Source: Octopus sinensis
Taxonomy: Eukaryota
Length of the DNA stretch: 64,000 nucleotides
Direction of reading: 5' to 3'
Assembly: GCF_006345805.1 (NCBI RefSeq)
Contig: NC_043011.1
Span: 53,518,464 to 53,582,463 of the forward strand
Shown here: in pieces, positions 37,121 to 62,380 of the stretch
How positions within the stretch are numbered: the first letter of the stretch is position 1
Layout: each line of letters opens with the position of its first letter
Made by a program: the position numbers and the translations under genes
Notes under the pieces: model-generated
Told to the model about the DNA's origin: nothing
Database searches by the model: none
What the model saw: the letters and a program-made list of their open reading frames with translations, nothing else

Positions 37121-37720
37121 ATCTAAGGTCTTTGTAGGACACAAAGGTAGAATATTTCCAATGAAACACTAAACTGAAGATCTGGGCTATCATAACTGTC
37201 AGATTCCAAACTAATACCAAAATTCTTCAGGTGTAGAAAATCCTGGTTTCACAACAGTAAAACTGTTGTGTGGATTTAGCAAAGAGATAAAACATAATCC
37301 AAATAATAAGAGAAAAATACTTTAATAAATCTCTGATGAAGAGTTACAAACATTTTCTGTACCAACTCTGCTTGCAACATCAGTTTATGCAAAAATTCAA
37401 AGTGAAAAGTTACATAATATTTGAAGTTTTACACTTTAGAGTGGCACTTCATCAGACTTGTATCAAAAATGTGCTCTTACATTATGCTTATATATGAGGT
37501 GGTACCAAAACGTCTCTGGTCTAGTTCTGTAGCACACAGCTGTGTGTGCAGTGAGAGCTAGCAGTGACCTTCGTGAGGGAGTGTGCCTAGTGGCATCACT
37601 GTGTTTACATCACAAGTGGTGAAATGTGTGTTTCCGTGATCACATGTATGATGTAAGTCTGTGATTTTGTTATGGACAGGAACAGAGAGCCAAAGTGAAA
37701 TTTTGTGTTAAACTTTGGAA

Positions 37721-37932
37721 CATTATTTACATTATTTACATTTGACAGATATTTGTCCTCGTCTTGTTTTTTGTTAACAATGAGAACCCAGGTTTGAAAT
37801 TTCCCCAAGACACCTGATGAAGGCTGGAGGGTATATCAGTCGAAATGTTAGTGTTAGCAAAAAACAAGATGAGGACAAATATCTGTCAAATGTAAATAAT
37901 GTACTTAATTCCTCATCTCTTAAATATAGAAC
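37721..37932 (+). mobile_element. 212-bp hammerhead-bearing insertion with ~51-bp inverted arms and a 17-bp TSD
   Basis: TSD TGTGTTAAACTTTGGAA (37704-20) / TGTATTAAACTTTGGAA (37933-49); arms 37729-37779 / 37852-37902. Confidence 0.88.
37809..37855 (+). ncRNA. Minimal type I hammerhead motif
   Basis: GACAC-CTGATGA(37814-20)-A-GGCTGG agggtata TCAGTC-GAAA(37842-45)-TGT-TA-GTGTT. Confidence 0.75.
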
Positions 37933-38361
37933 TGTATTAAACTTTGGAAGTTTGCTAAAGAGATGTTGAGCATGCTTCAGTAAGCTTACGGTGACAAGGC
38001 AATGGGTCGTATGCAATGTTTTGAGTGGCATGGGTGCTTCAAAGGTGAAAGAACATCCCTGGAGGATAATGGGTGGTCTGGAAGACCTGCCTTGAGTGTT
38101 ATCCCCAGAAATATGGTATTGTGTATCAAGAATTCATGTCTCAGGGCCAGACCATCAATTGAGAGTTCTATTGCAACATTTTGAAATGTTTGAGGGAAGA
38201 TATTTGGCAAAAGTGACTGGATCCATAGAGTGCGAAGAATAGGATTCTTCACGAAGCTCTCCTCACTCGTAGCTGTCTGCTTTCTCTGACCTGCTGGAAA
38301 TAGCAGCCAAATTTCCCTCATACCACACCATATCATCATCAAATCTTTTCAGAAAATGGCA

Positions 38362-62178: not shown

Positions 62179-62380
62179 GTGACCACGTGTGTATCATTGG
62201 CGATTTTCTTTCTCGGTCTTCCCTTCCTTGGACCTTTCCCTTTTCTATGTTTCTGATGAAGAGCTCCGCTCGAAACGTTAAATCCTCCTTCTTTCTTTCC
62301 TTTCCTGAGCGTTCAATAACACTATACTTGTTCAGTGTCCTCGCGTTGTTGTGTTTTCTTTGTTCATGTTTGGATTAACT
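62179..62380 (+). mobile_element. ~200-bp hammerhead element between (TA)n tracts
   Basis: GTTT-CTGATGA(62253-59)-A-GAGC tcc GCTC-GAAA(62272-75)-CG-TT-AAAT; same family as 49882-50060 and the 3' fragment at 45167-45219. Confidence 0.82.

Follow-up and report, generated by a model that had tools for sequence, protein, structure and literature searches.

The window, a stretch of 64,000 nt of the Octopus sinensis contig NC_043011.1, contains a decayed Tc1/mariner-type transposon copy on its plus strand that is interrupted by an insert of 216 bp. The left part of the transposon (37490-37720; start approximate, with some other copies aligning from 37490) matches other copies at 84-87% over 37530-37720, the right part (37937-38274; end approximate) at 67-83%; the label mariner is presumed from an N-terminal likeness, and the piece that was tested gave no match in Pfam. 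The initial annotation had described a discrete insertion into a mariner reading frame, and this description holds: after deletion of the insert in silico the frame ..KVKFCVKLWKFAKEMLSMLQ is regained, and in the alignment to uninterrupted mariner copies, which had been proposed as a check, all 29 other copies retrieved (among 39 others listed) possess the target once and lack the insert. A stop follows 8 codons after the insertion site; since the mariner copy is decayed and internally deleted, no working gene has been split. Among the contig joints shown at the insert junctions no empty orthologous site was seen; contigs of run X1 matched both junctions exactly, and contigs of run X5 matched the right junction with 2 differences, but with less than 31 nt on one side in either case, and they were not counted as bridges. 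Beyond the mariner copy, the segment 38290-38880 holds a common SINE-like repeat in several copies, all in decayed form (direct-repeat families D4-D7).

The insert is associated with direct repeats of 17 nt (37704-37720 and 37933-37949; spacing 229) and comprises inverted arms of 58 nt with 93% identity (37722-37779 and 37852-37909). The repeats had been regarded as a 17-bp target-site duplication (TSD); this length has to be corrected to 13 bp, because the first four nucleotides of the right repeat (TGTA) are the element's own 3' end. TGTA follows the tail as the 3' end of the whole family (T92/G86/T71/A86 per 100 copies, with mixed bases beyond), as counted in the first 100 copies by position on contig C1 from 5,509 tail matches. 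The true TSD is a perfect 13-mer on the plus strand, with identical left (37708-37720) and right (37937-37949) copies, that occurs once in 29/29 uninterrupted mariner copies; its first 3 nt equal the continuation of the template (TTA overlap), which leaves a possible length of 10-13 bp. The start of the right repeat with the element's TGTA also accounts for the single G/A mismatch between the 17-nt repeats, a site at which mariner has G in 19/29 copies. Both TSD copies have T at a column where mariner has G in 22/29 and T in 4/29 copies.

As judged from its sequence, the insert is a doubly truncated head-to-head pair of terminal repeats (pLTR) of a high-copy Penelope-like retrotransposon. The inverted, tail-less arm (37721-37779, minus strand) corresponds to about -80 to -23 of the pLTR (0 being base 37932) and has its last base in common with the right arm; the sense, tail-bearing arm (37779-37936, plus strand) corresponds to -152 to +4 and is 5'-truncated, without the tRNA-like head and the (AAT)n tract. 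The 27-nt tail (37910-37936, plus strand), present on one arm only, is positioned between two inferred reverse-transcription starts, with arm ends clustering at -19 to -34 and at -8 to +4. The Penelope ORF is represented by its first ~52 codons in decayed form (MRTQV.NFPKTPDEGWRVYQ..; 37780-37935, plus strand), where a CpG-decay stop and an inserted nucleotide disrupt a frame that is open in L191 and L198. Because the ATG at 37780 opens this ORF, the insert is not non-coding in origin; in place of the independent non-coding unit of the initial annotation there is thus a pair of truncated pLTRs from a Penelope with an ORF. The arms differ in their 9-nt units, of which the inverted arm has two identical ones (37721-37740) and the sense arm one plus a variant (37892-37909); the difference may be due to slippage at initiation or to two different template RNAs. 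Two further candidates were discarded: the tail-less end does not call for telomerase-like repeat addition, as the in-frame 9-nt unit is variable in the template itself, and a pile-up of sense-arm ends at -43 is an alignment artefact of the variable (GTAAATAAT)n units.

Exact matches in the genome G000 numbered 5,509 for the 22-nt tail and 5,466 for the 24-nt ribozyme core. In some copies the tail continues into the ORF, and longer stretches constitute an ORF of ~2.3 kb with an RVT_1 match (above the Pfam cut-off in two ORF pieces). This ORF is 42% identical over 548 aa to P0064, a protein with matches to RT and, at its C terminus, to a GIY-YIG domain; Pfam gave no direct GIY-YIG match in the decayed ORF copies, and the 42% identity spans that domain. 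With a single ORF for RT and C-terminal GIY-YIG endonuclease, and with a pLTR that holds the ORF start and a hammerhead motif, the parent has the composition of an EN+ Penelope-like element; it presumably belongs to the Penelope/Poseidon clade, as judged by the domain order and by relatives with ORFs of ~830-850 aa. Starting at the ATG (window position 37780), the frame reads through the hammerhead, the variable 9-nt unit being an in-frame VNN repeat. Beyond the ORF stop the order is ~30 nt, a GCCC-AC-GGGC palindrome, the tRNA-like head, (AAT)n, ribozyme and tail; among 30 copies chosen on the ORF end alone, the tRNA-like head comes directly after the ORF stop in 29. In consequence of this shared order, head, body, ribozyme and tail together represent the pLTR, and the window insert a truncated pair of it. 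Four contig sets guessed to be RNA cover the ORF end; strand, start and level are unreadable from such contigs. Identical flanks within 1 Mb of contig C1 were observed for L108, L109, L111 and L112 (segmental duplication or assembly redundancy).

The insertion layout itself is the published Penelope layout: inverted pLTR, one-sided tail, TSDs of 8-10 bp, 5' palindrome and solo pLTRs are found in the available text of PMC3846280, PMC8557442 and PMC2377424. As far as the accessible portions of the reports extend, the octopus family resembles the EN+ elements PAc of Anolis (PMC11167929), Penelope of D. virilis (PMC2377424) and Pen2/Pen2a of Adineta (PMC3846280) in the pLTR with ORF start and hammerhead, the inverted truncated pLTR, a tail of ~30 nt on one side, AT-rich targets, the 5' palindrome of the pLTR, solo pLTRs, the single RT plus C-terminal GIY-YIG ORF and the short TSDs (8-16 bp here, 8-10 in Adineta). 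The presumptive starts are located ~129 and ~156 nt after the ATG, with the tail of 27 nt, compared with 111-118 in PAc. Unlike these elements, the octopus pLTR has at its start a tRNA-Arg-like head, equipped with A and B boxes, followed by an (AAT)n tract, and pLTR-only palindromes outnumber the ORF-bearing copies. Non-LTR retrozymes, in the part of the preprint available (bioRxiv 10.64898/2026.07.22.740005), are likewise derivatives of PLE pLTRs with type I hammerheads; they are non-autonomous and defined as tandem arrays with a hammerhead in each unit, whereas the insert in the window consists of one inverted pair, is monomeric and has a TSD, and most sampled loci of the family are single or inverted with a few partial tandems. 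Such partial tandems (L161-L165, L169-L171) have the first ~120 nt of the ORF beyond the tail joined back to head or body and carry two ribozymes on one strand, the arrangement needed by a dimer hammerhead.

How Penelope makes its inverted ends is termed undefined in the accessible part of PMC8557442, and the thousands of small two-armed copies of this family provide a genomic test of their formation. Four duplicates were removed from the 100 tail-selected copies for the counts that follow. A TSD score of at least 9 was obtained for 33/52 two-armed copies vs 2/305 shuffled pairs; beyond TGTA, the TSDs are 8-16 bp long with 72% AT. Together with the empty mariner copies, these family-wide duplications support the staggered cut with target-primed reverse transcription that had been proposed for the locus, and the proposal that insertion extends beyond (TA)n is supported by the occurrence of (TA)5 or more in only 4/96 right flanks. 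The TTA found after TGTA in the template also follows an intact TGTA in 12/50 copies (about 4% expected).

The 3' ends of the arms form two clusters at about -23 and +4. An inverted partner was present in 39/79 core-selected loci, with tails on both arms in 0, on one arm in 35 and on neither in 4, vs 7.9, 19.3 and 11.9 if independent (P=4e-7); the four pairs without a tail include one mis-scored tandem and one true case with a TSD. A second tail was found in 0/52 tail-selected copies, a sample that overlaps the core-selected set. The family thereby has the inverted 5'-truncated copy with a tail at one end (27 nt here, 30-40 bp in Penelope inserts generally) and the short TSD of EN+ Penelope-like inserts. 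At L268 (G000:C1:33579954-33582954), both arms are present with the tail on neither and with a clear TSD of ~12 bp, an exception to the one-tail rule; at L291 and L295, both arms comprise tail, head and part of the ORF end, and their head-to-head junction lies within the ORF, at differing depths.

The insert is therefore described as a head-to-head, 5'-truncated pLTR pair that likely resulted from two-ended cDNA priming at a staggered cut of ~13 bp. The RT-endonuclease would nick both strands of AT-rich DNA 8-16 bp apart; one 3'-OH would prime at the distal start (+4), often aided by pairing of 1-3 nt of TTA, while the second would use the proximal start (about -23), and the 27-nt tail would thereby be confined to one arm. 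Both cDNAs would then end early, their inner ends would be joined with little or no overlap, and fill-in would create the TSD; the ribozyme would be a passenger during insertion that does not set the breakpoint. In the available text on PAc, the enzyme cuts and extends both strands, uses two adjacent internal starts and is modelled as a dimer; in vitro neither start is preferred on a given strand, and ribozyme cleavage is dispensable (PMC11167929), whereas one start per side is what we infer from the genomic copies. The two arms in the window may derive from different RNAs, as the numbers of 9-nt units differ.

Alternatively, a single target-primed cDNA might have folded back or primed itself at a palindrome, later hairpin deletions varying the inner joint; palindrome self-priming has been put forward for inverted arm formation in the available text of PMC3846280. 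Several features agree with this scheme: near-symmetric joints (within 30 nt) are in excess (25/52 vs 15.3 expected, P=0.0004), many full-length pairs join at the GCCC-AC-GGGC palindrome, arms of one insertion share derived bases (13.9% vs 6.2% in shuffled pairs; maximum 13.6% in 500 shuffles), a finding that fits two-ended priming as well, and the strict one-tail asymmetry would also fit one primed plus one resolved end. However, the 82 mixed pairs include 52 direct joints, of which 26 have the greater 5' extent on the tail-less arm and 16 on the tailed arm, the remaining 10 being equal; several times the tail-less arm is longer by 130-600 nt and reaches into the ORF. A longer tail-less arm is impossible by simple fold-back of one cDNA; every such case would call for another RNA-templated priming event or for a large deletion on one side. 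Two primings therefore fit better, and fold-back as the general route is considered distinctly unlikely. As either arm may be the longer one, priming at both sides of the break is favoured; jointly with the one-tail rule, the longer tail-less arms speak for two-ended priming rather than fold-back, in agreement with the two starts known in vitro. Hairpin fold-back may nevertheless produce some copies, given the excess of near-symmetric joints, and later deletions inside the palindromes could scramble the inner ends and blur the record.

The sense arm of the window insert carries a minimal type I hammerhead motif (37809-37855, plus strand) with stem I at 37809-37813/37851-37855, core at 37814-37820, stem II at 37822-37826/37837-37841, GAAA at 37842-37845 and a predicted cut after 37849. 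The window copy has changes C>T at 37840 and 37846 (one a wobble) and an extra A at 37850 beside the cut site, and is predicted to be inactive or weak. Of the 72 copies covering the ribozyme, 4 have all parts of the family form (CUGAUGA, stem II, GAAA, palindromic CG, NUH, stem I), and only 16 retain both core motifs. Rfam gave no match in the window at the gathering level, and when 7 loci were scanned by E-value, the sole matches were hairpin miRNA look-alikes, with no tRNA or hammerhead. Like the minimal hammerheads of metazoan PLEs described in the accessible part of PMC4209133, the motif has an extra nucleotide between 9 and 10.1, a G10.1-C11.1 pair, palindromic 15.2-16.2 and no stem III loop, such that a dimer would be needed; unlike them, there is usually one motif per strand in head-to-head pairs, with no second one on the same RNA, and the window copy is mutated beside the cut site.

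The left arm of the insert ends 1-2 nt 3' of the predicted scissile bond, as the initial annotation had noticed, and from this the inversion breakpoint had been connected with the cleavage site. In such a scheme ribozyme cleavage would fix the breakpoint and the 3' cleavage product would template the inverted arm; besides the window copy, L002 and L004 have a similar joint, though both were chosen for likeness to the query. The position in the window copy is confirmed, whereas its extension to the family is contradicted by 160 unique loci. For these, 81 of 100 listed ribozyme-core places (from the pattern with 5,466 matches) were added, 19 having been skipped as overlaps or second arms; 2 more were dropped and 15 were common to the tail-selected set. 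Inverted arms end inside a 104-nt zone around the ribozyme in 20/85 cases; their inner ends lie at most 3 nt from the cut in 1/20 (1.35 expected) and at most 5 nt in 2/20 (2.12 expected), and 5' ends of sense arms lie at most 3 nt from it in 2/29 (1.95 expected). Breakpoints are thus random relative to the cleavage site, most arms read through it, and hammerhead mutants had no effect on PAc insertion in vitro, according to the available sections of PMC11167929; a breakpoint fixed by cleavage is regarded as highly improbable. A weak excess at the cleavage site, under about 3-fold, may be compatible with the sample size; the near match in the window is best read as chance. Other minimal-hammerhead-like cores in the window are located at 62253 (plus strand; CUGAUGA, a stem II and GAAACGUU retained), 37455 (minus strand; decayed, ~250 bp left of the insert) and 2121 (plus strand) and are unrelated to the Penelope family.

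The less ordinary feature of the family would be the tRNA-derived head within the pLTR of an ORF-bearing element, which is unusual. A search of full-text papers, as distinct from repeat databases and supplements, found no Penelope whose pLTR derives from a tRNA, and the accessible part of PMC13282606 does not mention hammerheads. A and B boxes were recognized in 21/30 and 20/30 head copies, respectively, and the best match of the head among 20 tRNA sequences with 8 anticodons is the tRNA-Arg(TCT) of the same genome (z 7-10). The family therewith has the tRNA-related head with A and B boxes of a SINE; the window copy lacks it by truncation. In the parts of the respective sources available, a Pol III-type promoter is joined to a type I hammerhead in SMalpha and Sjalpha of Schistosoma (PMC6765202; PMC8490949), which are non-coding tandem repeats, whereas here the head is placed on an ORF-bearing element with copies dispersed as inverted pairs; the TRIMp3 elements Cassandra, Helenus and Ajax (PMC10886601) have a small-RNA-derived Pol III promoter inside the terminal repeat, and these are non-autonomous LTR elements, with Pol II expected in autonomous partners.

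The tRNA-derived head is the likely starting point of the element RNA. Among the 112 arms that extend into this head, 19 continue as far as the ORF, 51 terminate in the 3' 73 nt of the head and 42 close to its start (about 39 on visual inspection). Of the 61 arms that get as far as the head start, about 39 thus stop within ~10 nt of it, a ~12-fold rate vs the rest of the head. That an RNA starting here is transcribed by RNA polymerase III would, on balance, be somewhat favoured by the motifs and end positions, and pLTR-only copies could then spread like SINEs. The sense strand of three near-complete copies is free of TTTT (2.4-3.6 expected each; P 0.01-0.09, the copies not being independent), and no TTTT site was common to 30% of copies over the 2,155/2,620 positions covered five-fold; for the 2.6-kb unit the shared absence has P~0.02-0.05, with a single master behind the copies. 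A control Penelope-like family had 4 shared TTTT sites with only 1 inside its ORF (~2 kb), and TTTT absence is therefore only a weak hint of Pol III. The control (L341-L360) is a second high-copy family with a different RT motif and a CxxC region before its GIY-YIG-like end.

The head might instead be a non-functional remnant of a tRNA or SINE that was inserted long ago, in an element transcribed by Pol II, with a hairpin halting the reverse transcriptase at the head, a reading that is quite conceivable if somewhat doubtful. At its default score ARAGORN found no tRNA in 17 loci, and its calls at relaxed scores were inconsistent; the pile-up at the head start coincides with the GC-rich palindrome, and the 5' palindromes of rotifer pLTRs are known without any tRNA claim in the available text of PMC3846280. 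An ORF requires a translatable RNA, and in D. virilis the pLTR of Penelope contains an internal promoter of the Pol II type, according to the accessible part of PMC2377424. On the other hand, the A and B boxes have survived the decay of the acceptor and T stems, the ends are situated 6-15 nt before the A box with many joined to non-palindromic sequence, and TTTT is shared nowhere along the unit. A more far-reaching version of the Pol III reading, tentative and rather unlikely as a whole, is that an autonomous, protein-coding Penelope would be transcribed by Pol III end to end from a captured tRNA-Arg promoter, which would explain the TTTT-free 2.6 kb, and that two-start insertions would plant two outward-facing promoters and reseed SINE-like pLTR palindromes by the thousands. 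If true, an ORF-bearing element with a tRNA-derived promoter in its pLTR would make the line between SINEs and autonomous elements less sharp, and a Pol III RNA of such an element would raise the question of its translation.

The short units could also represent a separate tRNA-headed SINE family with a borrowed Penelope 3' end that is mobilised in trans. A tRNA-like head with A and B boxes, a microsatellite body and thousands of short copies would suit such a family, as would the mere 19 of 112 head-entering arms that continue into the ORF. Against this, the same head follows the ORF stop in 29/30 copies and the body is the 5' end of the ORF itself; the unit is therefore the pLTR of the autonomous element, and a separate family is unlikely. 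Indeed, a SINE is distinct from its autonomous partner except for the 3' tail, whereas here the whole unit is the partner's pLTR. Solo copies might possibly be re-amplified in a SINE-like manner. OR SINEs reportedly derive from tRNA-Arg (Ohshima and Okada 1994).
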